A stretch of DNA of 64,000 bases from Hyphomicrobiales bacterium (GTDB taxonomy: Bacteria; Pseudomonadota; Alphaproteobacteria; Rhizobiales; Beijerinckiaceae): the NCBI GenBank assembly GCA_046092445.1, contig JBJTDR010000101.1, positions 1,726 to 65,725 on the forward strand, read 5' to 3'. Within the stretch, counting starts at the first letter, position 1; every line of letters starts with the position of its first letter. Below are positions 4,238 through 58,664 of this stretch, piece by piece. The notes under the pieces were generated by a model. That model made no database searches, was not told where the DNA came from, and was given only the letters and a program-made list of their open reading frames with translations. Both the position numbers and the translations under genes were made by a program.

Positions 4238-5169
4238 ACAGCCTCTGAATCCGTAAAGGGAAGATCCGTCAAATGCGCGTGAAGTCGCGCATCATGAACG
4301 CTCCGATATCGCCAGAAAGCAAACCGGAACGGCAAGGAAAGCAGAATAAGGAGGGACACAATCGCCTTCGTCCGCAACGGAACCATCGTGCGCTGTGACC
4401 ACACATCGAAACGGTTTCTGGCGATTTTCAATCCAATCTCGCGATAAACCCGGCCTGCAATGAAGATCGCCGTTCGTGCGCCGAGCGGCAGAAATGGTAG
4501 ACCCGCATTGCCACTCCGATAATACCTGTCTGCAAGAAGAAGCAAGTGTTCAACCGATCGAGCAAGCTTGCCCTTGACCTCATCGGTTGGGTCCATCAGC
4601 AATGCCGGCTCAACGGCCCCGATCGAGTCCGCCGGAACATACCGGCGATCCATCGTGGCATCTTCCCTGACATCACGCGCAATATTGGTCAGTTGCATCG
4701 CAATGCCGAGATCAATCGCATGAAACAGTGCGGTCGGGCTCTTCACATCCAAAGCCGCGCTCATCATCAACCCGACCGTGCCAGCAACCCTGTAACAATA
4801 GCGCAGCAAATGCGCCTGGCTATCAATACGAACCCGGTCCAGATCGCTCAAAACACCCGCGATGAGTTCCAACGGGATCACGAGGTCGATCCGGCATTCA
4901 TGAAAGAGCGCCAGCGCATCAAGAACACGCGGATCATCTGATGTGTTGGCCTTCAAATCCCGGAAAATCCTCGCCAATTCAGCGCGCGCCCCGGCAATAG
5001 TCGGCGAATCGTCGGCGACATCGTCAATATATCGGCAAAAGCCATAGAGCCGTGTAGCACGCACCGCATATTTTCTGATCAGGAAAAACCGCGCCCAATA
5101 AAAACTCTTGCCCTTCGCCTGAAGCAATTGGTCGGATCGCTCATACTCATCTTCACGAGAACCCGTCAT
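4234..5169 (-). CDS. crtB: phytoene synthase
   Basis: Squalene/phytoene synthase signatures (YGFCRYIDDVADD, YCYRVAGTVGLM, NIARDVREDA). Confidence 0.9.
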   Translation of the reverse strand: MTGSREDEYERSDQLLQAKGKSFYWARFFLIRKYAVRATRLYGFCRYIDDVADDSPTIAGARAELARIFRDLKANTSDDPRVLDALALFHECRIDLVIPLELIAGVLSDLDRVRIDSQAHLLRYCYRVAGTVGLMMSAALDVKSPTALFHAIDLGIAMQLTNIARDVREDATMDRRYVPADSIGAVEPALLMDPTDEVKGKLARSVEHLLLLADRYYRSGNAGLPFLPLGARTAIFIAGRVYREIGLKIARNRFDVWSQRTMVPLRTKAIVSLLILLSLPFRFAFWRYRSVHDARLHAHLTDLPFTDSEAV

Positions 5170-6776: not shown

Positions 6777-6791
6777 ACCATTCTCCGGTTG

Positions 6792-7712
6792 TCAGACTTG
6801 ATCTGCCAGATGCCGAGCGAGTTCCGCGAATTGGCGCCCCAGATTCCTGGGCAACATGCCGGCGCTCGTCGCGGCCTCTTGAAATTTCTGGCGCGCGAGG
6901 TACCGGGCCGCCATGACCGGATCGCCACTCCGATGCTTCTGTTCCAGCACGAGGATCGCATTGAGCGATCGCTGTTTGAGGTCGCTCGCGGCGTCTTCTT
7001 TCAAATCGTTGAGGTCATCCAGAATTTGATATCCGATCGAGAACGGTTCGACGACAGATGCCGTTTTGGGCAGCCACTCCGACATTTGGGCCGAGATCAG
7101 ACATAGTTCCAGCGGCAACCCGATCAGTGCCCCGGATTTCGCGACGACAATCTGCTCGTAAAGTCCGATATCATTGAACAATATGTCCTTCAGAGCGAGG
7201 TCTGCGCTCTGCCCCTGAATCACATGGGCGACACGCTCGTGAATTTTCCGGATCAGCTTGCCAATCAATTCCGGTCGATCGACGTTCGCGAGCGACACAT
7301 AGGCTGCTGACAGGTAAAGATCACCGGCACAAATTGCAACGCTTTCCCCGTATAAAGCCCAGACGGTTTTCTTGCCGCGGCGATACATGTCGCGATCCTG
7401 GATATCGTCATGAATGAGCGACGCGTTATGGATCAGTTCGCACGCGGCACCAAGGCAGACGATCGTCGCGGTTGACAGGCCGAGAGCGAGCCCCGCGTGA
7501 ATGCACAGCTTGACCCGCATCCGTTGTCCGCCTGTTTGCAGGTGATATGCCGCAGCCTCTGCGACCTTCGATGGTCCGGTTTCAAGGGAGGAACGCCGCG
7601 TCGATGCCCTTTCGGGGGCTACCAGCTCCGACATCTGCTGTTCGACCATCGACAACAGGGTGTCGGGCGACTCCTGTCGGCTGTCATCTGGCGAACGCGA
7701 TATGTTTCTCAT
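6792..7712 (-). CDS. crtE: geranylgeranyl diphosphate synthase (polyprenyl synthetase family)
   Basis: Both aspartate-rich motifs are present (LIHDDIQD and YQILDDLNDL). It is the first gene of the crt operon. The exact start is uncertain (alternative MVEQQM). Confidence 0.85.
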   Translation of the reverse strand: MRNISRSPDDSRQESPDTLLSMVEQQMSELVAPERASTRRSSLETGPSKVAEAAAYHLQTGGQRMRVKLCIHAGLALGLSTATIVCLGAACELIHNASLIHDDIQDRDMYRRGKKTVWALYGESVAICAGDLYLSAAYVSLANVDRPELIGKLIRKIHERVAHVIQGQSADLALKDILFNDIGLYEQIVVAKSGALIGLPLELCLISAQMSEWLPKTASVVEPFSIGYQILDDLNDLKEDAASDLKQRSLNAILVLEQKHRSGDPVMAARYLARQKFQEAATSAGMLPRNLGRQFAELARHLADQV

Positions 7713-7866: not shown

Positions 7867-7881
7867 CCCCGTTCAGATCAA

Positions 7882-8673
7882 TTACTTCGTGGCCTTGTCC
7901 GTTTCACTCACGGCAACCGACCAGATGATCACACCGAAGGCGATCTTGTTGAGAACGTCGGCGAGATTGTAGATGACATTCAGCGCCTTCATGCTGCTTG
8001 CCGGATCGCTGCCTGTCAGGTAACCGAAGAAATAGCCGATCGGATAGATCGCCCAGCCGAAGGTCACAATCAGACGCATCAGGCTGAAAGCGGACTGCAC
8101 CGATGCTGGTGCCTGGCTGGCATTGATCTTGCCGGCTTCGCCGAGGAAGATTTCGTAGAGAATGTACGCCCAGCCAATCATACCAACGATGAAGGCTGGC
8201 CATACGCCGACATAGCCTGCTTCGCCGACATAACCGGCAACCAGCATGACAAGCGTACCGATCATCAGACGCCAGAACACGCCCACTGGCACTTTCGTGA
8301 TTGCCGAGAGGATCAAGTAGAACTCGACCATCAACAATGGCACAGTGATCAGCCAGTCAATGTAGCGATACACGGTCGGCGTCGAGCCTGTCGCGACCCA
8401 AACATCGCGCATGTAGAAATAGTGCACGGCGGCAATCAACGTCACCAGACCCGAAACGGTCAGCGAGGTTTTCCACTTTCCTGCAACGCGCTGCGTTTCC
8501 AGAAAGAAGAAAGCCGTCGACGCGATGAGGGCCATCGAGATCAGCCAGAAGGAGATACCGACGAAATCATCTGGCTTCAGTTCAGATGAAGCGAAGGCCT
8601 CGCTCCCAAATGCCAACAACATGGCAGAACTTGCGACCCCGAGGCGGGTCAAAGGATTATTGAGTGTGATCAT
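7882..8673 (-). CDS. proteorhodopsin, proton-pump type (DTE motif), Leu at the spectral tuning site
   Basis: RYIDWLITVPLLMVEF gives D97/T101/E108 equivalents and Leu at the position-105 equivalent. AAVHYFYM contains the His75 equivalent. NLADVLNKIAFG contains the Schiff-base Lys. The start was moved to the ATG at 8673 (GGAGA 8 nt upstream), giving a signal-like N-terminus MITLNNPLTRLGVASSAMLLAFGSEAFA. Confidence 0.92.
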   Translation of the reverse strand: MITLNNPLTRLGVASSAMLLAFGSEAFASSELKPDDFVGISFWLISMALIASTAFFFLETQRVAGKWKTSLTVSGLVTLIAAVHYFYMRDVWVATGSTPTVYRYIDWLITVPLLMVEFYLILSAITKVPVGVFWRLMIGTLVMLVAGYVGEAGYVGVWPAFIVGMIGWAYILYEIFLGEAGKINASQAPASVQSAFSLMRLIVTFGWAIYPIGYFFGYLTGSDPASSMKALNVIYNLADVLNKIAFGVIIWSVAVSETDKATK

Positions 8674-8873
8674 TCTGAGCGTCTCCTGTTCCATAGTGTG
8701 TTAATTATCGTTCGAAGCAATCGTCAGTTTAGCATTAAATTAAAAGTAATCAACAACACGGATCAAAAATCCGGCGACGGCGCCGATCGCGTCCGGGCAT
8801 TATTGCTTCCCGTATCAGCGATTATCACGATGGAGGACGCATGCCCGCGTCCGAGCTTTGCGAAGCAATCGGC

Positions 8874-9218: not shown

Positions 9219-10610
9219 TCAGTCCCGACGTGTCGTTGGCAGCAATGCGTCCGACCCGTTCAGTACCCGCTCTAACGCGTGATGCAACGGCAGCGGGTCG
9301 GTCACCTTTCTGCCGCGGCAGAGTACGATCCGGTCGGCTTGATCCCGACACAGGAGCGTATTCACGCTGCGGGCGGAAAAGATCACCAGATTCGCCGGAA
9401 GCCCGACGCCGATGCGCCCGAGATCCGGCCGCCCGATCAGATCAGCCGGCACGCGGGAGGCCATTGCGAGGCTTCCGGTCAACGGCTCGTCAGCCTGAAA
9501 GATGCGGATCGCCTGCTTCAACGTATCCAGCATGTCATGGTCGCCATAGGCGTACCAGGCATCGCGGCAGTTGTCACCGCCGATCGCAAGCGGCAGGCCC
9601 GCCGCACGGATCTCGTTCGCCGCAGTCACCCCCCGCCAGCGCGGCGTTCGGCCCGCTTTGCGATCCATCAGATACATCATCGGTGTCGGCATGGACACAA
9701 AGGCGAGGTCCGCCTCCTTGGCAAGGCTGAGTGTATTCTCGATCACCTCTGGCGGCTGAAGCGCGAGATTGACGCAATGGCCGAGCACAACCCGCCCTTG
9801 AAAGCCGCTGCGCAGGCGCGACCGGGCGATCTCCGGAATGGTGAACACCGAAACATCCTCGGTCTGGTCGACATGCAGGTCCACGTCGAGGCTGCGCTCC
9901 TTGGCCAGAGCAAAGAGGCGATCAAGTGCTTCCCCCAACGTGTCATAAGTGCCATTCTCGCCGCGCTCCAGCGTGTCGGTGACCCCGCCAAGGATGCCGC
10001 CCATCGATGCCGCCAGATCTGCAAGATCACGGGCCTCGTCGCCGGTCCAGGCCTCCATCGCGGCGATCGTGACGCCTTGAAGGTCGACGCGGCCCGCCCA
10101 TTTGCCGCGTAACCGATCGAAAACGCGATATCCGCGCCGGGAAAGAGCCAGGGTCTCGCTGTCCACATGCGTCCGGATAGCGGACACGCCATGGACATGG
10201 GCGCATTGGAGGCCGAATTCCATGCGGAGGGTCATGTCTTCGTCTGTCCAACGGTCCCAGTCCATGGCGGTCAGGGAGAATCCGCCATGGATCGTCCCGT
10301 CCGGTCGCACACGGGGGATTGCCTGTCCGCAATCCAGATGCGTGTGCATGTCGATAAAGGCAGGCCAGACATGTCGGCCATCTAGGCATACGGGAGCTCC
10401 GTTCTCCGGCCCCGAGCCCGCTGGAAAAAGCGCCGCAATCATGCCCTGATCAACCAGCACATCTAGCTGCAACGCACCTTCAGCGTCTGAAACGGCGGCT
10501 GGAGGCGGATCGAGAACAAGTTCCGCAGGTATCCTCGCGTTCGACAACATCAGCCTGCTGTCCGGCGGTATCATCAGCGCCGGTTCAATCTGCGTCCACC
10601 ACCTTTTCAT
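9219..10610 (-). CDS. amidohydrolase of the cytosine deaminase / creatinine deaminase-like group
   Basis: AFIDMHTHLD metal-binding HxH motif and CodA-like length and layout. It is the last gene of the operon. The start is ambiguous (ATG at 10610 or 10574). Confidence 0.7.
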   Translation of the reverse strand: MKRWWTQIEPALMIPPDSRLMLSNARIPAELVLDPPPAAVSDAEGALQLDVLVDQGMIAALFPAGSGPENGAPVCLDGRHVWPAFIDMHTHLDCGQAIPRVRPDGTIHGGFSLTAMDWDRWTDEDMTLRMEFGLQCAHVHGVSAIRTHVDSETLALSRRGYRVFDRLRGKWAGRVDLQGVTIAAMEAWTGDEARDLADLAASMGGILGGVTDTLERGENGTYDTLGEALDRLFALAKERSLDVDLHVDQTEDVSVFTIPEIARSRLRSGFQGRVVLGHCVNLALQPPEVIENTLSLAKEADLAFVSMPTPMMYLMDRKAGRTPRWRGVTAANEIRAAGLPLAIGGDNCRDAWYAYGDHDMLDTLKQAIRIFQADEPLTGSLAMASRVPADLIGRPDLGRIGVGLPANLVIFSARSVNTLLCRDQADRIVLCRGRKVTDPLPLHHALERVLNGSDALLPTTRRD

Positions 10611-10641
10611 CGCGGTTCGCACCGGGGTTCGGAGCGGTCGG

Positions 10642-11691
10642 TCAGAAACCTGCCTTGATTTTTTCGAACTCTGCGACCTGACGGTCCCTGAGCGCGAGAT
10701 CAAAGGGCAATTGCGCAAGCGTCGGTCCGTTGATCGGGCTCAGTCCGCTATCATCGAGAAGTTTCGCATCCAGCTTTTTCATGCCTTCCGAATTGGCATG
10801 CCCGTACCCGATCGCGTTGACCAAAGCCGGTGCGCCATCAGGGCGAATCCACGAATTCACGTAATCGTAAGCCTTGTCCTCCTTGCCTTTGCCATTTTTC
10901 AGATTGACCAGACCGCAAAACCAGGTGGTCACCCCTTCCTTGGGCGTGCGCTGATACCCGACCGGGAAATTCTCTTTCCGCAGAAGAGACACGCCGTCAG
11001 GCCATGACCACGCCACCAGCACCTCGCCGGATTTCATGAGCTGCACCAATTCGGATCCCGAATTCACATAGGCACGAACCCCGGGATGGATCTTTCGCAA
11101 CCAGTCCTTGGCCGCGTTGAACTGTTGGTCAGTCACTTTGGTCCAGTCGGTGACGCCCGTCGCAAGATAGGCCAGCGCCCAGACATCATCCGCGGCATTG
11201 GGTAACGTGATGCGGTTGGCATATTTCGGATCGGTGAACACCTGCAGTGTCGCAACATCCGATGTAGGAACCTTTTCAGTATTATAGGCAATCGCCGTTA
11301 CGCCCCAATCCGCCGGGATGATCCAGACACCCTTATCATCCTGAACCACGCTGGATTTCAGAAACTCGGGCATGATATTCTTGAATTCGGGAATTTTCGA
11401 GACGTCCCATGGTTCGATCAAGTTCGCTTCGCGGTATTTCGGAACCATTTGTGCGCAAGGATGCGAAACATCCGCCGCAAAGCCCGTCATTGCCTTTTGA
11501 AATGTATCATCGTCCGAATTGACAAAGGCATAGGTCGGCCTGACACCCCACTTTTCCTTGTAGGCTGCGTATAAACCTTCAACGTCGAACCCCGGCCAAT
11601 CCGTCACGACAAGCTCCGGATCGTCGGCATGGGCTGGAATTAGAAACGCCAGAAAAAATGCACCACACAGAAATTGACGTGCCTTTTTCAT
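10642..11691 (-). CDS. ABC transporter periplasmic substrate-binding protein, PotD/PotF-like
   Basis: Signal peptide MKKARQFLCGAFFLAFLIPAHA, about 350 aa, polyamine-type binding-protein look. It is adjacent to PotABC-like genes. Confidence 0.8.
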   Translation of the reverse strand: MKKARQFLCGAFFLAFLIPAHADDPELVVTDWPGFDVEGLYAAYKEKWGVRPTYAFVNSDDDTFQKAMTGFAADVSHPCAQMVPKYREANLIEPWDVSKIPEFKNIMPEFLKSSVVQDDKGVWIIPADWGVTAIAYNTEKVPTSDVATLQVFTDPKYANRITLPNAADDVWALAYLATGVTDWTKVTDQQFNAAKDWLRKIHPGVRAYVNSGSELVQLMKSGEVLVAWSWPDGVSLLRKENFPVGYQRTPKEGVTTWFCGLVNLKNGKGKEDKAYDYVNSWIRPDGAPALVNAIGYGHANSEGMKKLDAKLLDDSGLSPINGPTLAQLPFDLALRDRQVAEFEKIKAGF

Positions 11692-11891: not shown

Positions 11892-12989
11892 CTAACGAAA
11901 CAAGACCATCGCGTCCGCGCTCCACGCCACTCTCGCTTTCGCACCGATGCCGAGAACAGGTCGGCCAAACTCGTTGCGCATGGAGAGCCGAACGGGTCGG
12001 TCCGAACCATCCAGCTTGATTTCATAATGGGTGAGGTCACCCAAATAGGTCACATTGCCGATTGTCGCCATGCTCTCCCGATCAGGCGTTGTTTGGCCGT
12101 CAAACAAGATCGTCAGCGCCTCCGGCCGGAAGCCTAAACTGGCCTCGCCTTCGGATGGAATACCCGCAATCTGGTCCGCTCTGAGTGTGAACCGTCCAAG
12201 GCCTTCAGCACTTACTTGCGCAACATGATCCGATTCAATCGTGATCGTTGCGGGCAGAAAACTCATTGTGCCGATAAAGTCCGCAACACGACGGCAGTTT
12301 GGTCGGCGATAGAGCGCCTGCGGATCGGCCAGTTGCGTGATCTCTCCTTCGAACATGACGGCGATCCGGTCCGACATCACCAGCGCCTCTTCTTGATCAT
12401 GTGTCACTAAAACAAACGTGATCCCCACCTGCCGCTGGAGCCTGATCAGTTCGAACTGCATCTGCTCGCGTAGCTTCCTGTCTAAAGCCGATAGGGGCTC
12501 ATCCAGGAGCAACACCTTGGGCTTCAGGATCAGGGCCCGGGCCAGCGCAACCCGTTGCCGTTGCCCACCGGACAAAGCATGCGAGGCACGCGCGCCGAAC
12601 CCCGCCAAACCCACCATATCGAGCGCCTCAGCGATCGCACGCGCCTTCTCGGTCGGTGATCTCGGGTCACGGCGTAGTCCGAAGCCGACATTCTGCTCGA
12701 CTGTCAAATGGGGAAAAATCGCATAATTCTGAAATACCATATTGGTCGGCCGCAAATTTGCGGGAACTGCCACCATGTTCCCGCCATCGATCAGAACTGA
12801 GCCCGATGATATCTCTTCAAATCCGGCAATCGTGCGAAGCAGCGTGGTCTTTCCGCAACCGGACGGTCCCAGCAGCGAAAAGAATTCGCCTGCTTTGATC
12901 GAGGCTGTAATGCCGCGGAGCGCATGATACGTGCCATAGTGCTTGTGGACATCTCGAAGCTCGATCATTGCGGATTTCTCTGAAGTCAC
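11892..12989 (-). CDS. ABC transporter ATP-binding protein, PotA-like
   Basis: Walker A GPSGCGKTT, signature LSGGQRQR, Walker B LLLDEPLSALD, plus a C-terminal TOBE-like extension. The GTG start overlaps the upstream stop (GTGA). Confidence 0.9.
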   Translation of the reverse strand: MTSEKSAMIELRDVHKHYGTYHALRGITASIKAGEFFSLLGPSGCGKTTLLRTIAGFEEISSGSVLIDGGNMVAVPANLRPTNMVFQNYAIFPHLTVEQNVGFGLRRDPRSPTEKARAIAEALDMVGLAGFGARASHALSGGQRQRVALARALILKPKVLLLDEPLSALDRKLREQMQFELIRLQRQVGITFVLVTHDQEEALVMSDRIAVMFEGEITQLADPQALYRRPNCRRVADFIGTMSFLPATITIESDHVAQVSAEGLGRFTLRADQIAGIPSEGEASLGFRPEALTILFDGQTTPDRESMATIGNVTYLGDLTHYEIKLDGSDRPVRLSMRNEFGRPVLGIGAKARVAWSADAMVLFR

Positions 12990-13795
12990 GAGATGCCTCC
13001 AGAAAGAGTGCTTCCGACCCGCGCGAGCCCGCGGCGCCGGAAATATTCCGCCAACCCGAGCAGGATGATCGAGACGAGCACCAGGATTGATCCGAGCGCC
13101 AGCATTGACGGCACCCGCGCCGGAAAGCGGAACTGACCGTAAATATAGGCGGCAAGCGGCGTATTCGTACCGCCGAGGAAGAAAGCGATGACGAATTCGT
13201 CAAGCGAAATCGTGAAACACATCAGGAGCGACGAGATGATGCCGGGTGTAACCAGCGGCAGAATGACAAGGCGGAACGCCGAAGCCGGCGTCTCGCCGAG
13301 ATCGTAAGCCGCTTCTTCCAGCGATCGGTCCAGCGCGTGGAATGCAGTTGACATGATCGCTACCGCAAAGGGAATACAAATCAGGACGTGGCCAAGAATG
13401 ATCGTCCACAGCGAGAGCGGAATACCGATTGCGAGCAACACGACCAAAATCGACATCGCAATGATCATATTGGGCAAAACCATCGGCAGCATGATCATGC
13501 CCATAATCCCGCCCTTGAGCGGAAACGCGTATCGGGTGCTGGCACGCGCAGCGAGAATGCCGAAGCAGGTGGAAATCACAGCCGTTGAGCCCGAGACGAT
13601 CAATGAATTCTGCAAGGCGCGTAACAGTTGCGTGTCATTCCACATCGCCGAAAACCATTTGGACGAGAAGCCCGAGAGCGGGAACGCGATCACGCTTGAC
13701 TCGTTGAACGCAAACAAGGGGAGTAATGCAATGGGAGCATAAAGGAAGATCAGATAGATGATCGTATAGGCGCGAAGGCTGTTTGCTCGGGTCAT
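12986..13795 (-). CDS. ABC transporter permease, PotC-like
   Basis: ORF 12986..14071 trimmed to the ATG at 13795 (MTRANSLRAY...), which overlaps the upstream stop as ATGA. Multi-pass membrane protein with an EAA-like loop (SLEEAAYDLG). Confidence 0.85.
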   Translation of the reverse strand: MTRANSLRAYTIIYLIFLYAPIALLPLFAFNESSVIAFPLSGFSSKWFSAMWNDTQLLRALQNSLIVSGSTAVISTCFGILAARASTRYAFPLKGGIMGMIMLPMVLPNMIIAMSILVVLLAIGIPLSLWTIILGHVLICIPFAVAIMSTAFHALDRSLEEAAYDLGETPASAFRLVILPLVTPGIISSLLMCFTISLDEFVIAFFLGGTNTPLAAYIYGQFRFPARVPSMLALGSILVLVSIILLGLAEYFRRRGLARVGSTLSGGIS

Positions 13796-14655
13796 GGCAC
13801 CCGCCTCAGAAAACGCCGGTTCAAAAACAAAAACAAGAGGCCGGCAAGCGAGACGACGGCCATGGCGACCACCGCCATTGCCGAACCCGAGGCTCTGTTG
13901 TTGAGCTTTAATAATTGCACTTCCACCAGATTGGCGATCATCGGGGATTTGCCGCTGCCGATCAGGTCGGGCGTCACATAATCGCCAACAGTCGGAATGA
14001 ACACAATCAGAACTGCAGCAGCGACGCCCGGCATGGAAAGCGGCAGAGTGACACGCCGGAACGTGCCCCAATAGGTCTCGCCGAGATCCTGCCCGGCTTC
14101 CAGCAGCGAACGGTCAATTCTTTCCAGAGCGACAAAAATCGGCAGAATGGCGAAGGGTGCATAGGCATGTGCCAGGGTGACAATCATCGCCGCCGTCGCA
14201 TTGGTCATGAACGACATCGGGCCTGATGTCACCCCGATCGTGTCCAATGTCGAGGAGATGATACCGCCATAACCGAGGATCACCTTCCACAAAAAGACCC
14301 TGATGATATAGCTCGTCCAGAACGGAATTGTGATCAGGAACAGCCAGAGGGATTTCTTCGGTTCACGCACATAGAAACTGACGAAATAGGCGATAGGATA
14401 GGCCACAATGACGGTTGCGATAGTTACCGTGATTGACACGATCAAGGTCCGTAACATGATCGCGCGATAAATCGGGTCCGTCAAAGTATCGGCGTAGTTT
14501 CTGAAGGTAAAACCAGCTTCGAACCCCCTCGGTCCGCCGGAAGCGAGCGAGTGCAGGAAGAGGGCTGCCATGGGTGCAGCCAGCAGAAGCAATGCGAACA
14601 CGGCCGTCGGGCTGATCAGGAGAAGTCCACCTCGTGCCTCTGAATGCCTGCTCAC
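13792..14655 (-). CDS. ABC transporter permease, PotB-like
   Basis: Multi-pass membrane protein with an EAA-like loop (LLEAGQDLG). The GTG start overlaps the DMGDH-like stop (GTGA). Confidence 0.85.
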   Translation of the reverse strand: MSRHSEARGGLLLISPTAVFALLLLAAPMAALFLHSLASGGPRGFEAGFTFRNYADTLTDPIYRAIMLRTLIVSITVTIATVIVAYPIAYFVSFYVREPKKSLWLFLITIPFWTSYIIRVFLWKVILGYGGIISSTLDTIGVTSGPMSFMTNATAAMIVTLAHAYAPFAILPIFVALERIDRSLLEAGQDLGETYWGTFRRVTLPLSMPGVAAAVLIVFIPTVGDYVTPDLIGSGKSPMIANLVEVQLLKLNNRASGSAMAVVAMAVVSLAGLLFLFLNRRFLRRVP

Positions 14656-17069
14656 CCCCGCAACCTCGCACCGGCTGGATCAAACGGCGGCTCGACCAGA
14701 ATTTTAGCCTGATGCGGGCGACCCAGAATGGCGACGTGAACCATTGTCCCCGGCTGCGCATGCTCCGCTTTCACATAAGCTATGGCGAGAGACTTTTGCA
14801 CAAAATAGCCATAGGTTCCTGAACTTACTTGGCCTGCCGGCGTTCCGTCAGGCAGGAATACAGGTTCTCCCCCCGTCGCATCGGCCTCCTCCGCGTCAAT
14901 TTCCAGCATCACCATCACATCACGGGGTGGCTTTGTCGCGATATTCTGCCACGCCTCCTTGTTGAGAAAGTCCTTGTCCGACTTAACCAGCTTGTCGAGC
15001 CCGCATTCCTGCGGCCAATATTCGGGACTATAATCACGGCCCCAGCTGCCATAGCCCTTTTCAACCCGCAGACTCATCAAGGCACGCGAGCCGACAGGTC
15101 CGGCCCCAAGCGGCTGGCCTGCCGCGAGCAGGGCCTCATAAAGCGCCACCTGATCTTTCTCGGCGCAGTGAAGCTCCCACCCGAGATCGCCCGTGAAAGA
15201 AACGCGAATGGCGACAACGGAAATCCCGGCCACGACAATGCGTTGCGAGCGCATGAAGGGAGAGGCGCCATTTGAGAGGTCGGCATTGGTTAAACGCTGC
15301 AATAATTCCCGGGACTTCGGCCCCGCAACATTGAAGCCGCAGACAGTCTCGGTAAGCGAGCGGAAAATTGTTGCTTCTGGTAATTCGACATCACGGAAGA
15401 AGCGCTGGTGAAAACGCTCGGCCATGCCTGAGCCCACAATCATGAATTCATCATCGCTCAGGCGTGTCACCGTGAAATCGCCTGCAATCCCGCCGCGCTT
15501 GCCGATCAACGGGGTGAGACAGGAGCGACCCACCTCGCGCGGCATGCGGTTGGCAAAAAGCATATTGAGCCATTTCTCGGCATCCGGACCCTTCACATCG
15601 TATTTCGCGAAATTGGAAATGTCGATAATGCCCGCATGCTCGCGCAGCATGAGTGCCTCGCGCCCGACAGGTCCCCACCAATTCTGCCGCGTGAACCCGA
15701 GTGTTTCCGCTTTCGGCTCGCCGTCCACCGAAAACCACAGCGGATGCTCCCAGCCATAATTCAACCCGAAAATCGCACCCATTCCCCTTTGCAACTCATA
15801 GACCGGGCGGGTCCGGACCGGACGGCCCGCAGCACGCTCTTCATTCGGGAAATGGATCTTGAAGCGGTTGGCATATTGGTCACGCACCCGTGCCTTGGTA
15901 AAGTCGCGCCCGGCCCAGTGACCGTACCGGGCGAGATCCCATCCGAACATATCCAGCGACGGCTCGCCGTCGATCATCCATTCGGCAGCAAGCTTCCCAA
16001 GTCCGCCCGATTGCGAAAAGCCCGGAATAATGCCGCAGCAGCAGAAATAGTTTTTGAGCTCAGGCACCGGTCCAAACAGCGCCGCACTGTCCGGCGACCA
16101 GATCATCGGCCCGTTGATTACGCGCTTGATGCCTGTCTCGCCGATCGCAGGCACCCTCGTGATCGCCCGCATCATATTGGGCTCGATCCGTTCCAGATCA
16201 TCTGGAAACAGCTCATGGCCGAAATTGGCGGGTGTACCGTCCTCCGCCCAGAACTTCATATCCTGCTCATAGGCACCAACCAGCAGGCCCTGACCTTCCT
16301 GCCGCAAATAATATTCGCCATCGCGGTCCGCAATCGACGGCAGACGCCGACCGAGCGCGGCAATCGCCGGAATCGTCTCCGTCACGAGATATTGATGCTC
16401 CGTGGGGATCAATGGCAGGGTCAGTCCGGCCATGGCAGCCACTTCGCGCGCCCAGAGACCCGCAGCATTGATCACCCATTGGGTATGAATATCGCCCCTA
16501 GCCGTGCGTACCAGCCAGCTCCCGTCCGAGCGCTGTTCGGTTGCGGTTACGGCCGTGAAACGATGGATCTCCGCGCCGCGTTGGCGGGCGCCTGCCGCGT
16601 AAGCCGCCGTGACGCCCGAAGGATCGACATTGCCGCCATCCGGCTCGTGCATGATACACCGGATACCGTCAAAATTGGCGAGGGGATGCAGCCTCTCCGC
16701 TTCCGCCCGCGTCACCTCGAAGAAATTCATGCCATAACGTTTTGCCTTCGCCGCCTGCAAACGCAATTGGTGCTCGCGCGCCTCCGTCTGGGCAAGATAA
16801 AGCGACCCCGGCTGGAACACGCCGCAGCCCTGGCCCGTCTCCGCCTCAAGCTCCTTGTAGAGCTTCATCGTATAATGCTGCAGCCGGCTGATATTGGTCG
16901 AGTCATGCAGACCATGAATATTGGCCGCCGCATGCCAGGTCGAACCACTCGTCAGCTCGTCGCGTTCCAGAAGAACAATGTCACTCCAGCCATGCTTGGC
17001 GAGGTGGTAGAGAATGGAGCACCCGATGACGCCACCACCGATAATCACGGCCTGTGCATGGGTTTTCAT
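14652..17069 (-). CDS. FAD-dependent dimethylglycine/sarcosine dehydrogenase-like oxidoreductase with a C-terminal GcvT-type folate-binding domain
   Basis: VIIGGGVIGCS FAD fold and GSTWHAA (covalent-flavin His context of DMGDH/SardH). About 805 aa with an aminomethyltransferase-like C-terminal half. The ATG at 17069 overlaps the MttB stop (TGATG). Confidence 0.85.
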   Translation of the reverse strand: MKTHAQAVIIGGGVIGCSILYHLAKHGWSDIVLLERDELTSGSTWHAAANIHGLHDSTNISRLQHYTMKLYKELEAETGQGCGVFQPGSLYLAQTEAREHQLRLQAAKAKRYGMNFFEVTRAEAERLHPLANFDGIRCIMHEPDGGNVDPSGVTAAYAAGARQRGAEIHRFTAVTATEQRSDGSWLVRTARGDIHTQWVINAAGLWAREVAAMAGLTLPLIPTEHQYLVTETIPAIAALGRRLPSIADRDGEYYLRQEGQGLLVGAYEQDMKFWAEDGTPANFGHELFPDDLERIEPNMMRAITRVPAIGETGIKRVINGPMIWSPDSAALFGPVPELKNYFCCCGIIPGFSQSGGLGKLAAEWMIDGEPSLDMFGWDLARYGHWAGRDFTKARVRDQYANRFKIHFPNEERAAGRPVRTRPVYELQRGMGAIFGLNYGWEHPLWFSVDGEPKAETLGFTRQNWWGPVGREALMLREHAGIIDISNFAKYDVKGPDAEKWLNMLFANRMPREVGRSCLTPLIGKRGGIAGDFTVTRLSDDEFMIVGSGMAERFHQRFFRDVELPEATIFRSLTETVCGFNVAGPKSRELLQRLTNADLSNGASPFMRSQRIVVAGISVVAIRVSFTGDLGWELHCAEKDQVALYEALLAAGQPLGAGPVGSRALMSLRVEKGYGSWGRDYSPEYWPQECGLDKLVKSDKDFLNKEAWQNIATKPPRDVMVMLEIDAEEADATGGEPVFLPDGTPAGQVSSGTYGYFVQKSLAIAYVKAEHAQPGTMVHVAILGRPHQAKILVEPPFDPAGARLRG

Positions 17070-18607
17070 CAAGGTTCTCCGGGTCCGATTTCTTCACGGC
17101 GGCGGGCGACATAGGCGTCGAGTTCCTCGCGAATTGCACGCTCAAGTGCCGGTTCTTCATAGTCTCTCAGCGCTTGCTGCCAGAGCGATGTGGCGCGTGC
17201 CAGCGCATCGCGCGACCCCGCAGCCTGCCATGCACCATGGTTCTGCCAGTCCGAAAGCAGGGGCCGGTAAAAGGCCGTCTCGTACCGCGACATCGTATGC
17301 TCCGACCCGAAGAAATGTCCTCCGGCAGGTACGGATTTCATGGCGTCGAACCCCAGATCATCTTCGGAAAAGGGCAGGGGCTTGAGAAATTCCATCATGT
17401 TCTGCAGAATTTCCACATCGAGGATGAGCTTCTCGTACGAAGCGGTCAGTCCACCCTCGAGCCACCCCGCGGCATGGTAAATCATATTGGCACCGCCGAG
17501 CACGGCACCCCATGTCGCCATGCCGGTTTCATAAGTGGCTTGCAGATCGACAGCGTTGGACGCGTTCGAGTTCGAGCTTCGGTAGGGCAGGCCATAGCGG
17601 CGCGCCAATTGTCCGCCGATCACATTCGCCTTTGTGTTTTCAGGCGTCCCGAAGGCCGGCGCGCCGGAGCGCATATCGACATTCGAGGTAAAGCCGCCAT
17701 ACATCACGGGCGCACCCGGATTGATCAGCTGTGTCATCGCCACACCGAACAGTGCCTCGGCATTCTGCTGTGCCAATGCAGCCGCAAGCGTCACGGGCGT
17801 CATGGCGCCCATCAGCGTGAACGGCGTGATTGTCACCGGTTGCCCGTGTTCCACCATCGCCGCCAGCCCGTCCGTCATCGCATCATCCAGTAATCGCGGC
17901 GAATTGACGGAGATGATGGTAATCACCCCCGGCGCAGCGCGCATCTCCTCCAGACTGGCCCCGCGTGAAATCGCCATCATCTTGATGCCGTCAAGCGCCC
18001 GCCCGCGGCCGATAGCGGTGCAGTGGAAACAGCGATCACTGAGCGTGAGGTTCGCCCGATAGGTATCGAGATGACGGGAATTCGCCGGAAGCTCCATCGG
18101 CGCCACCACCTGATTGCCGATCAGATGAATGGCATTGAAGTGCTGTGCGAGGCGGATGAAATTCTGATAGTCGCCAAGGTTTCCCGCCCGTCTTCCGTTG
18201 ATGCAATCATGGACATTGGGCGGCCCTGCAACGAGGCCGAAGGTCAGGCTGTTGCCGCCAACGCTGAGCATGCGCTGCGGGTTGCGGCTGCTCAGCGTGA
18301 AGGAACGCGGCGCCGACTTGATGGCCGCCATAATCAGGCTCTCATCGGCACGGATGATCCGTTCCGTGCGATCGACAATGGCGCCCGCGCACTCGAACAG
18401 ATCCATCGCCTTCTCGCTCATCACCTTGACGCCGAGTTCGGAGAGAATCCGCATCGAGGTCGAATGCAGCATGTCAAGCTGCTCGTCATTCAAAATCTCG
18501 AAAGGGTTGTAGTCGTTCGTGACATCGCCCCACGGGAGTTGCGGAATCCCCCCGCCTGATCTTCCCGCGCGGGCTCTCCGCCCGCCGCCGCGTCCATCGT
18601 TTGTCAT
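17069..18607 (-). CDS. MttB-superfamily (trimethylamine methyltransferase family) protein, non-pyrrolysine type
   Basis: 512-aa uninterrupted ORF with the typical family length and sequence character (e.g. TPFTLMGAMTPVT, GANMIYHAAGWLEGGL). There is no in-frame TAG. ATGA overlap with the creatininase stop. Confidence 0.8.
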   Translation of the reverse strand: MTNDGRGGGRRARAGRSGGGIPQLPWGDVTNDYNPFEILNDEQLDMLHSTSMRILSELGVKVMSEKAMDLFECAGAIVDRTERIIRADESLIMAAIKSAPRSFTLSSRNPQRMLSVGGNSLTFGLVAGPPNVHDCINGRRAGNLGDYQNFIRLAQHFNAIHLIGNQVVAPMELPANSRHLDTYRANLTLSDRCFHCTAIGRGRALDGIKMMAISRGASLEEMRAAPGVITIISVNSPRLLDDAMTDGLAAMVEHGQPVTITPFTLMGAMTPVTLAAALAQQNAEALFGVAMTQLINPGAPVMYGGFTSNVDMRSGAPAFGTPENTKANVIGGQLARRYGLPYRSSNSNASNAVDLQATYETGMATWGAVLGGANMIYHAAGWLEGGLTASYEKLILDVEILQNMMEFLKPLPFSEDDLGFDAMKSVPAGGHFFGSEHTMSRYETAFYRPLLSDWQNHGAWQAAGSRDALARATSLWQQALRDYEEPALERAIREELDAYVARRREEIGPGEP

Positions 18608-19401
18608 CTGTCTCGCAGCCTCTCCATATCGAATGCGTGCACATCGCGGAGCACGTCGATGAAACCTTTCGCCTGATGGTCAATGATTTTCCGGCCCTTG
18701 TCCGGTGTTGCTGCCGCGGCATTACCAACCGCACCCGCAGGGTTGAGATCGCCGATCTTCCAGCCGAATTGCACCGGCCCGTGCCCGCGCAGCTTGGAAA
18801 AATCTTTATCGAAGGCGTGCTGTTCCGAACAAAAATCACGCGCATGTTCCATTCTGACAAGCTCAGGGCGCAGCGCCAGCATGATGGATGTTTCCTCGTC
18901 TCCGCCGTGAATGCCGCAAGCTGTTTCAGTGTCGCTCAGCACGGCATCCGGCACACCCATACGTGCCCAACTCGTCGCGACCACCAACATCGCGTGGAGG
19001 ATACGAAGTTCACGCGCCACAATGTCCATGATTTGCACATTGCCGCCATGCGATGTGACAATAACGAGTTTGCGGATGCCTGTGCGGGCCACACTTTTCC
19101 CGACATCAAGCCAGCACGTCGTTGCGTTCTCCCACGAGAGTGTGAGTGTCCCCGGATGATCAATATGCTCGTTTGATTTTCCGATTGCTTGCACGGGTAA
19201 AAACACAGCGGGTATATTCGGTGGCAGCAACGCTGCGACACGGTCCACAAGCCCTCTTGCGATGGCCGCGTCGGTCGAGAGCGGCAAATGCGGACCATGC
19301 TGTTCAATAGCCGCGATCGGCAATACAGCGATCCATTGTGCCACGTCAGTTGCATCAAAATCTGTGGTGGTCATGTCTTCCCAGAACACACGGCGGGTCA
19401 T
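18604..19401 (-). CDS. creatininase-family amidohydrolase
   Basis: Metal-ligand motifs AAIEQHGPHLPLSTD, TSHGGN and HGGDEETS are characteristic of the creatinine amidohydrolase family. Confidence 0.85.
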   Translation of the reverse strand: MTRRVFWEDMTTTDFDATDVAQWIAVLPIAAIEQHGPHLPLSTDAAIARGLVDRVAALLPPNIPAVFLPVQAIGKSNEHIDHPGTLTLSWENATTCWLDVGKSVARTGIRKLVIVTSHGGNVQIMDIVARELRILHAMLVVATSWARMGVPDAVLSDTETACGIHGGDEETSIMLALRPELVRMEHARDFCSEQHAFDKDFSKLRGHGPVQFGWKIGDLNPAGAVGNAAAATPDKGRKIIDHQAKGFIDVLRDVHAFDMERLRDR

Positions 19402-19805
19402 TCATCCGCCTCCACACTTCCGGCACAGGCAACAACTTCAACCTCGACCTTGAATTCCGGTCGCGAAAACCCGGAGACGATCAACAAGGTCGACGCTGGC
19501 GGCTCCCGCCGGTCTTTGAAGAACTGGTCGCGAACCGCCATATACGCCGAAAGATGCGTCCGATCGGTAACATAGGCCGTCAGCTTCGCCACATGGCGGC
19601 GATCGAGGCCGGCATGTGCGAGAATGGCTTCGGCATTTTCAAAGCAGAGCAGGGTTTGCTCTTGGACAGACTCAGGGATATCCCCGTTGCGTGAAATGCC
19701 GAGTTGGCCGGAGCAGATCACAAGGCGTTCATTGGCGGCAATTTCAACGCCTTGGGAATACCGCGCCAGTGATGGCGCGGCATTAGTCGAGTGAAGGAAT
19801 TTCAT
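19398..19805 (-). CDS. RidA/YjgF-family reactive enamine/imine deaminase
   Basis: ORF trimmed to the ATG at 19805 (AGAGGA 8 nt upstream). About 135 aa with family-like segments (ICSGQLG, VEVEVVA). Confidence 0.75.
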   Translation of the reverse strand: MKFLHSTNAAPSLARYSQGVEIAANERLVICSGQLGISRNGDIPESVQEQTLLCFENAEAILAHAGLDRRHVAKLTAYVTDRTHLSAYMAVRDQFFKDRREPPASTLLIVSGFSRPEFKVEVEVVACAGSVEADE

Positions 19806-21219
19806 TGGCGAAATCCTCTTCTTTCTTGAGACCGGGAAACAGGTAGAAACCGGCCTTGTCAAAGTCATAATCGGGGTTGTCCCACGCAATCATCTTGCCC
19901 GGATTGAGCAGGCCCTTCGGGTCGACCTCGCGTTTGAAAGCGAGCTGCACCTCGTCCGTCTGCTTCATGCCGCCTTCTTCCAGCGTGAAGCGATGCGGAT
20001 TGAATACCGGACACCCGTGCTCCTCGTGAATGCGCACGATGGCGTCGAGCCGCTCCTCCGTTGTGAAGCGGACGAGCGGAATGCCGTCGCAACTGATGCG
20101 GCCTTCAAAACGCATATACTCGGCATGCCCCGGCACCTCATCGCCAAACAGCATCGACATTTCCACGATCTTCTCGACATGGACAGGATTCGGGTAAAGG
20201 GTCTGAAGATAGGTTATTGACGGGTCCATGCGGATTGCCCGCAGGGTCGTATGGTTCCACGCCAGCTCATAGGCGGGTGGCAGGGAGCGCCGCTCGTCTT
20301 CTGGCAGCGTGTCAGAACGGAAGGAGATGGTCATGCGCTCTTGCCGGCAGAGCGCTTCAAGCGACGAGACGGCATGCGGTGCCACCATCGTCACAATCAC
20401 ATGATCATCAGCCGCGAGATATTTCTGGTGGCGAAGGAAATAGCGGTGCGGCGTCGGCGCTTCGATCGTACATAATTGCTTCAGGAGCAAACCGTCCTGA
20501 CAGGCCAGCACATCCGCGAACCGGTTAAGCTGCGCCCAGTCACGACCCGTGATCAGCATATCGATCCAGTCATAGGAAGCGGTGAGCGGCATGTCGAGGC
20601 GGGTAATGATGCCGTTGGTGCCATAGGCATGGATAACCTTGTGCAGTTCAAAGCCTGTCAAGGTCAGCACGCGGGGCTCCGCCTCCATGGTGATCACGCG
20701 CGCACTGATGACATTTCCGGTATCGCGTAGCGTGCCCCAGCGGATCGACCCCACGCCGCCCGACCCTCCGGCGATGAAGCCGCCAATCGTGGCGTTCCGC
20801 GCCGTTGATGGATGCATGCGCAGCTCTTGCCCCGAATGTGCGCGCGTCGCTTCGTCGATATCGTGGATGATGGCGCCAGCTTCGACCGATACGCATCCCG
20901 GCGCAATCCCGATGACACGATCCAAATTGCGCACGTCAAGCACCACACCGCCGGAGAGTGGCATCGCCTGACCATAATTGCCGGTGCTGCCACCCCGCGG
21001 CGTCACCGGAATATCGAGCCGGTAACAGGCCGAAAGTAATGCAACAACCTCTTCCTCGCTGCGCGGACTCACAACGATATCGCCCGTCACCCCCTCAAGC
21101 TGTCGCTTCAGAACGGGAGAGTACCAGTAAAAATCACGACTGCGTTGCGCAACGACCTTCGGATTTGTCTCGCAGGGTATGCCGTTGAGTAAAGTGATGA
21201 GTTCGTCGATTTTTGCCAT
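19783..21219 (-). CDS. FAD-binding oxidoreductase (PCMH-type FAD domain, GlcD/VAO-like)
   Basis: N-terminal FAD-binding domain (PRGGSTGNYGQAMPLSGGVVLDV), 478 aa. It is the first gene of the operon. Confidence 0.8.
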   Translation of the reverse strand: MAKIDELITLLNGIPCETNPKVVAQRSRDFYWYSPVLKRQLEGVTGDIVVSPRSEEEVVALLSACYRLDIPVTPRGGSTGNYGQAMPLSGGVVLDVRNLDRVIGIAPGCVSVEAGAIIHDIDEATRAHSGQELRMHPSTARNATIGGFIAGGSGGVGSIRWGTLRDTGNVISARVITMEAEPRVLTLTGFELHKVIHAYGTNGIITRLDMPLTASYDWIDMLITGRDWAQLNRFADVLACQDGLLLKQLCTIEAPTPHRYFLRHQKYLAADDHVIVTMVAPHAVSSLEALCRQERMTISFRSDTLPEDERRSLPPAYELAWNHTTLRAIRMDPSITYLQTLYPNPVHVEKIVEMSMLFGDEVPGHAEYMRFEGRISCDGIPLVRFTTEERLDAIVRIHEEHGCPVFNPHRFTLEEGGMKQTDEVQLAFKREVDPKGLLNPGKMIAWDNPDYDFDKAGFYLFPGLKKEEDFANEIPSLD

Positions 21220-21396: not shown

Positions 21397-22266
21397 TCAG
21401 AATGATGCCAAAAGTAATGACTTTAACTTCTCGCTGGCTTGCGTTGGCGGCAATTCTCCGGGACGTAAATCATAACCCCATCCGCTTGGAATATCCGCCG
21501 GGAAGGGCTCGACAAGCAGGCCGCGCCGCACGTGGATTTCAACAAGCGACGCCAGTGTCACCGCGCATCCCAATCCCTTGATCGCCATTTCCAGAGCCAC
21601 GTTGGAGCTATCCGTCTTCAACCCCTGCACAAGCGGCAGGTCCGGAATGCCATGTTGGTGCGCGAAGGCTTCCCAAAGCTCCTGTCGACCAAGAATGTGG
21701 ATCAGGCCTTTGCGCCTGACATCCGCCGGCGATGTCATGGCGTCAGGTCCGGTCATGAAATCCGGCGGACAGACCATAGCCAAACGTTCCTCGCCCAGAC
21801 TTTGGCCAACGAGCGGTTGACGGACATGGCGCGGTGTGATCCGAAGGTCGACAATCTGGTCGGTTGTCTCGGCCCAGATCGTGGCATGGACAGTCACAGC
21901 GACTTCCGGGTTTTGTTCATGATACCGCAATAGTCGTTCCGGCAACCAATTTGTCGCAAGGCTTGCCGGACAAGCAATCACGACTTCCTTCCGGTGCCGG
22001 ACGGTCTGCACATGTCCCGTCGCCAGATCAAGTTGCGCAAGTGACCGTTGCACCGCAGGCAGGTAAGCGGCTCCGACTTCAGTCAATGTCATGCTTCGGG
22101 ACGCGCGGTAAAACAGAGGACGCCCGATGAACTGCTCCAGAACCCGGACATGTCCCGAGACTGCCGCCTGGGTCAGGCGAAGTTCCTCCGCCGCACGGGT
22201 AAAGCTCAGGTGCCGGGCCGAGGCTTCGAATGACCTGATGCAATTCAAAGGAGGAAGGTATTTCAT
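21397..22266 (-). CDS. LysR-family transcriptional regulator (GcvA-like)
   Basis: N-terminal wHTH (SFTRAAEELRLTQAAVSGHVRVLE) plus a LysR substrate-binding domain. The ATG at 22266 is preferred over the TTG at 22290. Confidence 0.85.
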   Translation of the reverse strand: MKYLPPLNCIRSFEASARHLSFTRAAEELRLTQAAVSGHVRVLEQFIGRPLFYRASRSMTLTEVGAAYLPAVQRSLAQLDLATGHVQTVRHRKEVVIACPASLATNWLPERLLRYHEQNPEVAVTVHATIWAETTDQIVDLRITPRHVRQPLVGQSLGEERLAMVCPPDFMTGPDAMTSPADVRRKGLIHILGRQELWEAFAHQHGIPDLPLVQGLKTDSSNVALEMAIKGLGCAVTLASLVEIHVRRGLLVEPFPADIPSGWGYDLRPGELPPTQASEKLKSLLLASF

Positions 22267-22415
22267 CGCCGCGTATTTGCCTTGGTCCAATCAATCTGTC
22301 GGAAATGGGTTCTGCTATCGAACCTGACCCGAGGTAATCTAACGTGTCTCTCGTATGACGTAAACATCCTGCCCCGCTTCGGGCAAGACTCGGGAAAACA
22401 GGGCAAATGTTCATG

Positions 22416-26558: not shown

Positions 26559-26576
26559 CTTCATTTGAGCGGCTCG

Positions 26577-58660: not shown

Positions 58661-58664
58661 CGAG

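Follow-up and report, generated by a model that had tools for sequence, protein, structure and literature searches.

A 64-kb stretch of a Hyphomicrobiales genome (64,000 nucleotides of contig JBJTDR010000101.1, assembly GCA_046092445.1; called the window here, with positions counted from its first letter) encodes a non-pyrrolysine member of the MttB methyltransferase superfamily, whose gene is translationally coupled to one for an enzyme resembling dimethylglycine dehydrogenase (DMGDH). The locus is probably a catabolic operon under LysR control, which would serve to degrade a quaternary amine of the betaine type (a cationic, N-methylated compound with a carboxylate). We also consider it likely that this compound undergoes two sequential N-demethylations, the first dependent on vitamin B12 and on a shared carrier whose gene lies in another part of the genome and the second dependent on flavin adenine dinucleotide (FAD) and folate.

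The MttB-family methyltransferase

The methyltransferase gene translates into 512 aa with no internal stop and hence contains no in-frame TAG, as had been stated in the original prediction, an earlier note on this DNA. The Pfam profile PF06253 (MTTB) is matched from end to end (residues 6 to 508 against positions 1 to 500 of 500; E = 8.3e-202), and this full-length TIM-barrel domain places the protein in the MttB superfamily. Neither mark of the pyrrolysine trimethylamine methyltransferases was found; there is no in-frame UAG, and the score against the pyrrolysine MttB equivalog TIGR02369 is 287.5 bits, below the cut-off of 525. MtgB of Desulfitobacterium hafniense aligns with residues 36 to 508 at 36% identity (E = 5e-94), and the closest solved structure, PDB 4YYC, is also 36% identical (E = 8e-103). 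A Gly/Arg-rich N-terminal extension of 35 residues (residues 1 to 30 correspond to positions 18520 to 18607, MTNDGRGGGRRARAGRSGGGIPQLPW) is common to the proteobacterial relatives and PDB 4YYC, is missing in D. hafniense MtgB, and could serve as a docking segment.

In MtgB, R312 and H348 hold the substrate carboxylate and are required for methylation of cob(I)alamin (PMC13080624). Their equivalents in the window protein, R343 and H378, are invariant across 89 relatives; the Arg and His that characterize quaternary-amine:corrinoid methyltransferases of the MtgB, MtpB, MtcB, and MtyB type are thus both present. These residues support an acidic, cationic methyl donor without naming one.

The DMGDH-like partner

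The partner enzyme contains the DAO, FAO_M, GCV_T, and GCV_T_C domains, all four over their Pfam cut-offs, and the human and rat DMGDH structures match it over its full length (620 bits; E = 4e-185). GxGxxG (GGGVIG) and STWHAAA motifs are present, and the His of the latter, by analogy with rat DMGDH, is presumably the flavinylation site. The four-domain architecture, the FAD motif, and the flavinylation-type His place the protein in the dimethylglycine/sarcosine dehydrogenase family. As to a specific activity on dimethylglycine, no NCBIfam equivalog scored over its cut-off, and the gene context is ambiguous.

The dehydrogenase ORF (open reading frame) as listed spans positions 14652 to 17072 with a TTG start, an alternative that would give a 4-nt overlap with the MttB gene. 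The start is likely the ATG at position 17069, which shares one base with the MttB stop (TGATG) and has a GGAG Shine-Dalgarno sequence 7 nt upstream; the junction reads ...GGAGAACCTTGATGAAAACC. The overlap between the MttB stop and the start of an FAD- and folate-binding dehydrogenase, also described in the original prediction, is therefore real. On the other side, the stop of a creatininase-family gene overlaps the MttB start as ATGA, so translational coupling spans at least three genes.

The adjacency of the two genes would follow from pathway logic, since an MttB-type enzyme would convert a quaternary to a tertiary amine and the flavoenzyme a tertiary to a secondary amine. This proposed order parallels the conversion of glycine betaine to dimethylglycine and then to sarcosine. 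The earlier suggestion that the DMGDH-like enzyme receives a demethylated product probably describes the pathway correctly, but it fails as an alternative to a corrinoid acceptor.

A carrier probably encoded elsewhere

About 60 ORFs of at least 90 aa were called over the 64 kb, and all were scanned against Pfam. None of them contains a B12-binding (PF02310 or PF02607), RamA, pterin-binding, or homocysteine S-methyltransferase domain. Searches of the 64 kb by tblastn gave no match, either with the four modules of Escherichia coli MetH (including those for B12, pterin, and homocysteine) or with genuine alphaproteobacterial queries taken from plasmid records (two MtgC, DUF1638, and RamA-like activase). 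Translation of the window in six frames gives eight DxHxxG strings, none of them with the SxL...GG continuation, and a scan of the window for cobalamin riboswitches found none. As a positive control, the MetH B12 query recovered stand-alone B12 proteins and CmuA in plasmids, as well as the MtgC of Terrarubrum at 1e-28; the searches are therefore sensitive enough to show a corrinoid protein. A corrinoid protein hidden within the window is rejected on the basis of these searches, in agreement with the original prediction, which had recognized no B12-binding protein there.

Such a result is to be expected, since in related bacteria a single carrier is shared and its gene lies at another site. The premise of the original prediction, that MttB-family genes are usually encoded beside their corrinoid protein, is overstated; the two are unlinked in Eubacterium limosum (PMC8604678), Ruegeria pomeroyi (PMC12478193), and Phaeobacter inhibens (bioRxiv 10.64898/2025.12.19.695462). 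In E. limosum, which has 42 MttB paralogs in its genome, MtpB, MtcB, and MtyB are encoded in separate clusters and use one distant, shared MtqC/MtqA/RamQ set (PMC8604678). The R. pomeroyi MttB-family proteins SPO2108 and SPO2134 depend on the unlinked MtgC (SPO2160) and the likewise unlinked, pterin-binding MtgD (SPO1863), which together also form the core of a split methionine synthase and are genetically required for use of glycine betaine, while the activases RamA and DUF1638 are encoded separately (PMC12478193). Up to seven PF06253 genes have been reported per genome, and other methylated compounds have been proposed to be used via the same carrier (PMC12478193). For P. inhibens, phenotypes of mtgB1 and mtgC were confirmed and mtgB2-4 were called uncharacterised; the same study lists Sinorhizobium meliloti as a carrier of mtgBCD (bioRxiv 10.64898/2025.12.19.695462). 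In D. hafniense, mtgB is co-induced with mtgC, encoding a corrinoid protein, and mtgA, encoding a methyl-cobalamin:tetrahydrofolate methyltransferase (PMC12478193). Since shared, unlinked MtgC and MtgD are an answer already published, the arrangement in the window is not surprising; the significance given to it earlier was overestimated, on a premise that is outdated.

The gene pair in related genomes

One genome per species was scanned, which gave the 80 best representative loci (MttB identity, 62 to 79%; R. pomeroyi is not among them). The 55 loci with an MttB of at least 70% identity form the ortholog subset, and neighbors were counted within 10 kb. Exact copies of the window MttB were found only on short Logan metagenome contigs (≤10 kb) with identical gene order, and the top species representative is 79% identical. 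Many relatives of 76 to 81% identity were found in Mesorhizobium, Sinorhizobium, Labrys, Phyllobacterium, Aestuariivirga, and Tabrizicola, and at 70 to 80% the orthogroup is widespread in Alphaproteobacteria (Mesorhizobium, Sinorhizobium pSymA, Shinella, Leisingera, and others). Some relatives are also carried on plasmids of Sinorhizobium, Leisingera, Shinella, and Mesorhizobium, among them the S. meliloti 1021 ortholog at 812,258 to 813,733 of pSymA. On Leisingera plasmids, a MazE/Doc pair is found between the MttB and dehydrogenase genes.

A dehydrogenase ortholog (65 to 81% identity) lies within 10 kb of MttB in 37 of the 55 loci. It is directly downstream on the same strand in 16 of the 37, and in the others it is divergent across the LysR gene or a few kilobases off. 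Where MttB is only 62 to 65% identical, the dehydrogenase directly downstream is only 42 to 44% identical, and on a Terrarubrum plasmid a 47% identical MttB stands beside a 43% identical dehydrogenase. Three diverged MttB lineages were seen, each paired with a diverged dehydrogenase of its own. From these identities, the two genes diverge in step, which is what consecutive enzymes that have to follow one substrate should show.

No corrinoid protein, DUF1638, RamA-like activase, or pterin-binding gene was found within 10 kb of MttB in any of the 80 related loci. The same holds for B12-binding, DUF1638, RamA-like, and MetH-domain genes over about 14 kb on each side of the pSymA ortholog (L016); S. 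meliloti mtgBCDE are reported in a cluster of their own, with an activase and cob genes (PMC12478193). MtgC-type proteins that are 87 to 97% conserved are common in Mesorhizobium, Hoeflea, Nitratireductor, and Paracoccus, and Mesorhizobium, Hoeflea, and Paracoccus, among others, also contain relatives of the window MttB. A MetH-type homocysteine-binding (MtgE/Bmt-like) gene is found near two MttB relatives, directly upstream or about 4 kb away, in a gammaproteobacterial metagenome-assembled genome (MAG) and in Shinella sp. BYT-45 (L080, 8881 to 9852, and L032, 4892 to 5755). These neighbors tie the MttB family to the MtgC network.

A physical link is seen in the near-complete clustered system on the Terrarubrum flagellatum plasmid NZ_CP091854.1 (L101, 35564 to 49704, and L099, 8695 to 12275). 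Between 215 and 228 kb it carries genes for LysR, soxBDAG, a dehydrogenase-like protein, DUF1289, bmt, MttB, and an enolase-superfamily (MR_MLE) protein; MtgC, DUF1638, and a RamA-like gene annotated as “virulence factor” follow about 13 kb further round the circle, with cobN and cobO nearby. This plasmid physically ties a proteobacterial MttB and dehydrogenase to a homocysteine methyltransferase and the corrinoid machinery. It was considered as a linked member of the window orthogroup and dropped, because its MttB, at 47% identity, is another paralog.

On the P. inhibens plasmid pP54_a (L015, 11251 to 18734), a 72% identical dehydrogenase ortholog occurs without MttB, beside genes for a Rieske oxygenase alpha subunit and a PDR/VanB reductase. 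This fits the idea, by analogy, that the first demethylation may be performed by either an oxygenase or a B12 system. The other neighbors are genes for aldehyde dehydrogenases, a BCCT transporter, an Ldh-family oxidoreductase, and sarcosine oxidase. The Rieske/VanB pair might have been the published riboswitch-controlled gbcAB, but this identification is unsupported, as no cobalamin riboswitch was detected at the locus.

The original prediction had left a choice between an acceptor encoded elsewhere and a different chemistry. The first is favored by the published precedents and by the 80 related loci; the second is disfavored by the full-length MttB fold and the retained Arg and His. In the second case, an MttB without a corrinoid carrier, perhaps in a two-enzyme complex with the dehydrogenase, would pass its methyl group directly to tetrahydrofolate, onto the folate-binding domain of its partner, or via free cobalamin. 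Tight translational coupling to a folate-binding enzyme and the replacement of the MtgB aromatic cage residues (see below) are consistent with such a mechanism, as is the lack of a corrinoid gene in the 64 kb and the 80 loci. All of this support is negative in kind, and the lack of a nearby corrinoid gene carries no weight because unlinked shared carriers are the documented rule (PMC8604678, PMC12478193). Furthermore, the overlap with the dehydrogenase is not conserved, the two genes being more than 1 kb apart or on opposite strands in 21 of the 37 loci, and genera in which orthologs of this MttB occur possess MtgC. To our knowledge, all characterised non-pyrrolysine MttB members methylate a corrinoid protein, and we know of no member of the superfamily that acts without cobalamin; demethylating a quaternary nitrogen requires a supernucleophile such as Co(I). 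A carrier-free MttB is thus highly improbable; if true, it would represent a new mechanism for the superfamily in aerobes.

With a shared carrier, the pathway would run as follows. The substrate would be imported by the Pot-type ABC system of the operon, possibly helped by a nearby Dpp-type system, and would bind in the TIM-barrel pocket of the MttB-family protein. One methyl group would then pass to the Co(I) corrinoid bound by a small MtgC-type carrier, which would be encoded at another site in the genome and be common to other MttB paralogs and the split methionine synthase. From this carrier, an MtgD-type methyltransferase would move the methyl group to tetrahydrofolate, while activases of the RamA/DUF1638 type would maintain the carrier in its active state. 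The tertiary amine product would be oxidatively demethylated by the co-translated dehydrogenase, with the C1 unit going to tetrahydrofolate. The FAD-linked oxidase, RidA, creatininase-family hydrolase, and deaminase-type amidohydrolase may process the carbon skeleton before or after the demethylations.

Operon layout and gene neighborhood

The two genes are part of a minus-strand run from about 9.2 to 22.3 kb of the window (Table 1), in which many genes are joined by overlaps of 1 to 4 nt. A LysR gene is present with MttB in 44 of the 55 ortholog loci, and identity to the one in the window reaches 83% in the Rhodobacteraceae MAGs L066, L067, and L072. The FAD-linked oxidase is 84% identical in the closest relative (L013) and 41% identical in L067. 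For the RidA-family gene, the mechanical ORF reaches position 19889, and a 135-aa form is called on identical metagenome contigs (L004 to L008). The creatininase-family amidohydrolase scores 87.5 bits against the creatininase equivalog TIGR04448, whose cut-off is 235, and thus belongs to PF02633 at the family level only.

Downstream of the dehydrogenase are genes for a Pot-type ABC system. The true start of the PotC-like permease is placed, probably, near position 13800, because the mechanical ORF overlaps the preceding gene. The PotD/PotF-like protein is 76% identical to the product of a gene adjoining the MttB/dehydrogenase pair in L067, and the deaminase-type amidohydrolase, whose true start is probably downstream of position 10640, is 81% identical to its L067 counterpart. 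On the plus strand lies the family-5 solute-binding protein, whose counterparts adjoin the pair in L067 (61% identity) and, at 58 to 66%, in several loci of Mesorhizobium. MmgE/PrpD is the commonest accessory neighbor of the MttB orthogroup (32 of 55 ortholog loci) and is annotated as adjoining the MttB ortholog in Leisingera and Mesorhizobium.

Table 1. Coordinates, strands, and assignments of genes in the window
Feature	Position	Strand	Match or remark
MttB-superfamily methyltransferase, non-pyrrolysine	17069..18607	-	PF06253 end to end; predicted substrate:corrinoid (MT1) component
DMGDH-like FAD + tetrahydrofolate enzyme, 805 aa	14652..17069	-	Predicted second N-demethylation
LysR-family regulator, head of cluster	21397..22290	-	Pfam HTH_1 + LysR_substrate
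FAD-linked oxidase (FAD_binding_4 N-terminal domain), operon gene 1	19783..21219	-	PF01565, E 6e-28
RidA/YjgF-family protein	19398..19805	-	Ribonuc_L-PSP, 1e-23; stop overlaps next start by 4 nt
Creatininase-family (PF02633) metal amidohydrolase	18604..19401	-	Pfam 2.6e-70
PotB-like ABC permease	13792..14655	-	BPD_transp_1; NCBIfam PotB 1e-51, below cut-off; start overlaps dehydrogenase stop by 4 nt
PotC-like ABC permease	12986..14071 (mechanical ORF)	-	BPD_transp_1; NCBIfam PotC 1.7e-48 from residue 101
PotA-like ABC ATPase	11892..12989	-	ABC_tran + TOBE_2; TIGR01187 348 bits vs cut-off 356
PotD/PotF-like periplasmic solute-binding protein	10642..11691	-	SBP_bac_8 + SBP_bac_6
Amidohydrolase-superfamily deaminase, last of run	9219..10718	-	NF005759 “cytosine deaminase” 470 bits vs cut-off 403, from residue 48
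Family-5 (Dpp/Opp-type) solute-binding protein, linked by synteny	24863..26509	+	SBP_bac_5, 5e-71
MmgE/PrpD-family protein	26565..27905	+	MmgE_PrpD_N + MmgE_PrpD_C
Bac_rhodopsin	7882..8694	-	
Polyprenyl synthase	6792..7712	-	
Phytoene-desaturase-like protein	5307..6776	-	
Phytoene synthase	4234..5169	-	
Lycopene cyclase	3080..4237	-	
Beta-carotene 15,15'-dioxygenase	2190..3173	-	

Candidate substrates

Around the constant pair, the genes present in the window and in L013 and L067, its nearest relatives, are those for the creatininase-family protein, RidA, the FAD oxidase, the deaminase-type amidohydrolase, MmgE/PrpD, and binding proteins of the Pot type and family 5. In Sinorhizobium, Shinella, and Tabrizicola, the pair is joined by genes for an OpuAC-type betaine ABC transporter, an enolase-superfamily protein, an oxidoreductase of the Ldh_2 family, a creatinase-like M24 protein, and an isochorismatase, a context that resembles proline or hydroxyproline betaine clusters. 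Those of Mesorhizobium add MmgE/PrpD, DHDPS, a 2-hydroxyacid dehydrogenase, a sarcosine-oxidase-like set, a dihydropyrimidinase, and a carbamoylase, and those of Leisingera add hydantoinase A/B, a transaminase, and a racemase. Hydrolases of cyclic amides, ureides, and amidines are a recurring theme, with none over the equivalog cut-offs for the creatinine or ergothioneine pathway. Ergothioneine or hercynine was rejected as the substrate, as the hydantoinase and carbamoylase neighbors fall below the ErtD and ErtE cut-offs; it is a loose lead only. A literature search for the orthogroup found no paper assigning a substrate.

Several observations weigh against the pathway proposed here for a betaine-type substrate. 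The transporter encoded in the operon is of the polyamine/peptide type and not of the OpuA or BCCT type, which is usual for betaines. The accessory enzymes vary greatly between genomes, and a single substrate across the whole orthogroup is not a secure assumption. In addition, the aromatic cage of MtgB (Y97 and F356) is replaced by A127 and G386, both invariant in the orthogroup; because of this replacement, the cation-binding geometry appears to be unlike that of the one solved complex.

An invariant W382 is close to these two positions in the orthogroup. The aromatic pair is likewise not conserved in MtcB, MtpB, MthB, and MtyB (PMC13080624), and the Terrarubrum MttB, inside its bmt/sox/MtgC cluster, is also without it. 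The window protein thus does not have the residues of a glycine-betaine-specific MtgB of the D. hafniense type (Y97 and F356). Because the clustered Terrarubrum protein lacks them too, this excludes a D. hafniense-type pocket and not glycine betaine itself; the deduction that the substrate is not glycine betaine was weakened accordingly.

An amino-acid-type betaine other than glycine betaine is more likely than glycine betaine. A second glycine betaine route would be a special case of the shared-carrier model, in which MttB is isofunctional with MtgB and acts via a shared MtgC, its partner is a true dimethylglycine dehydrogenase, and the varied flanking genes feed different precursors into the hub. 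The full-length match of the dehydrogenase to mammalian DMGDH is consistent with this idea, as are the neighbors of its P. inhibens ortholog (the Rieske/VanB pair, BCCT, aldehyde dehydrogenases, and sarcosine oxidase), and a constant core with variable flanks is what a hub metabolite would be expected to show. In P. inhibens, glycine betaine induces several of the mtgB paralogs (bioRxiv 10.64898/2025.12.19.695462). However, neither an OpuA nor a BCCT betaine transporter is encoded in the window, the P. inhibens locus lacks the cobalamin riboswitch reported for gbcAB, and glycine betaine catabolism does not involve genes of the creatininase-like, deaminase-like, RidA, and MmgE/PrpD kinds. In Terrarubrum, it is a distinct, 47% identical MttB that is embedded with bmt, sox, MtgC, DUF1638, and RamA. 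In S. meliloti, mtgB is reported to lie beside mtgCDE (PMC12478193), while the pSymA ortholog has no corrinoid, activase, or MetH-domain gene nearby. We regard a second glycine betaine route as unlikely, but far from negligible.

The recurring hydrolases raise another possibility, a creatinine-, hydantoin-, or cyclic-amidine-type N-methyl compound, for which the dehydrogenase would be of the sarcosine type (acting on a secondary amine) and MttB would act on an atypical or non-quaternary donor, for example an N-methylguanidinium or an N-methyl heterocycle. Enzyme families of both known creatinine routes recur beside the pair in unrelated genomes: creatininase-family and cytosine/creatinine-deaminase-like proteins in the window, Creatinase_N/M24 and isochorismatase in S. 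meliloti and Shinella, hydantoinase A/B in Leisingera, and dihydropyrimidinase with carbamoylase in Mesorhizobium. Against this, the creatininase-family protein falls far under its equivalog cut-off, and several such neighbors are encoded on the other strand, perhaps in operons of their own. Furthermore, the characterised non-pyrrolysine members all use quaternary amines, and a neutral guanidine is a poor leaving group. A substrate of this kind is therefore improbable, and a betaine-type quaternary amine remains the reading that we prefer.

The orthogroup is common in rhizobia and roseobacters, where it is found on symbiosis megaplasmids and large plasmids. Once its substrate is named, the routes by which soil and water bacteria break down methylated nitrogen osmolytes would include a further one that depends on B12, and the known cobalamin demand of aerobic heterotrophs would be wider. 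The co-diverging MttB/dehydrogenase cassette may offer a practical handle for such substrate discovery.

Other features of the window

A complete set of rhodopsin and retinal-synthesis genes adjoins the operon on the minus strand (positions 2190 to 8694; Table 1), and the host is probably a light-using aerobic alphaproteobacterium. Between positions 34000 and 52000, the G+C content drops to 46 to 51%, compared with about 57% elsewhere. Genes in this stretch are of the sugar/inositol type and encode HpcH aldolases, GFO/IDH/MocA oxidoreductases, short-chain dehydrogenases/reductases, and a ribose-type ABC system; a 676-aa ORF (36794 to 38824) has no Pfam match. A fusion of a PfkB kinase with DUF2090 (661 aa; 32558 to 34543, plus strand) adjoins this island. 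A tRNA-Pro(CGG) on the minus strand, a tRNA-Gln(TTG) on the plus strand, and a terC cis-regulatory RNA (RF03067, 55 bits) lie at positions 58180 to 58638, the last of them directly upstream of a TerC-family gene (58620 to 59678). Two toxin-antitoxin pairs are found on the plus strand, one of the MazE-type/PIN kind (55555 to 56225) and the other of the Rv0623-like (PSK_trans_fac)/PIN kind (60048 to 60712).

Comparison with known systems

The window protein shares its superfamily and TIM-barrel fold with the pyrrolysine MttB of methanogens (PDB 7XCL to 7XCN). Unlike that enzyme, it has neither UAG nor pyrrolysine, aligns with it only over the C-terminal 290 residues (E = 2e-41), and is not a trimethylamine methyltransferase. 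It is closer to PDB 4YYC, a putative trimethylamine methyltransferase, presumably from S. meliloti; both have a Gly/Arg-rich N terminus and a HAAGWLEGGL motif, but PDB 4YYC retains a Tyr at the Y97 position and, at 36% identity, is a different paralog. D. hafniense MtgB (PDB 2QNE and 9YCE) has the same fold and the same carboxylate-binding Arg and His, whereas the window protein, also 36% identical, lacks Y97 and F356 and has the 35-residue extension.

The dehydrogenase, like mammalian DMGDH (PDB 4PAA and 5L46), is a four-domain FAD and folate enzyme, and HpbA of Paracoccus presumably has the same four-domain architecture. In the Paracoccus proline betaine pathway, a Rieske oxygenase (HpbBC) acts before the flavoenzyme (HpbA), an order proven genetically, and, as in the window, the flavoenzyme directly follows the first-step demethylase and a LysR regulator is present (PMC3950512). 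The window differs from the HpbBC and BHMT routes in that its first step is of the MttB type rather than carried out by a Rieske oxygenase or BHMT.

In E. limosum, the substrate-specific paralogs MtpB, MtcB, and MtyB are encoded apart from a common corrinoid protein, which is the genetic logic proposed for the window. E. limosum differs in being an anaerobic, Gram-positive acetogen, in which the products enter the Wood-Ljungdahl pathway and no flavoprotein-catalyzed second demethylation is coupled. The MtgB paralogs of R. pomeroyi and P. inhibens, several per genome and with one MtgC/MtgD presumed common to them, differ from the window in that its operon has Pot-type transport and cyclic-amide hydrolase genes and not glycine betaine genes. 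Like them, the window has a non-pyrrolysine PF06253 protein in an aerobic alphaproteobacterium, with the corrinoid gene unlinked and the genes for downstream demethylation adjoining.

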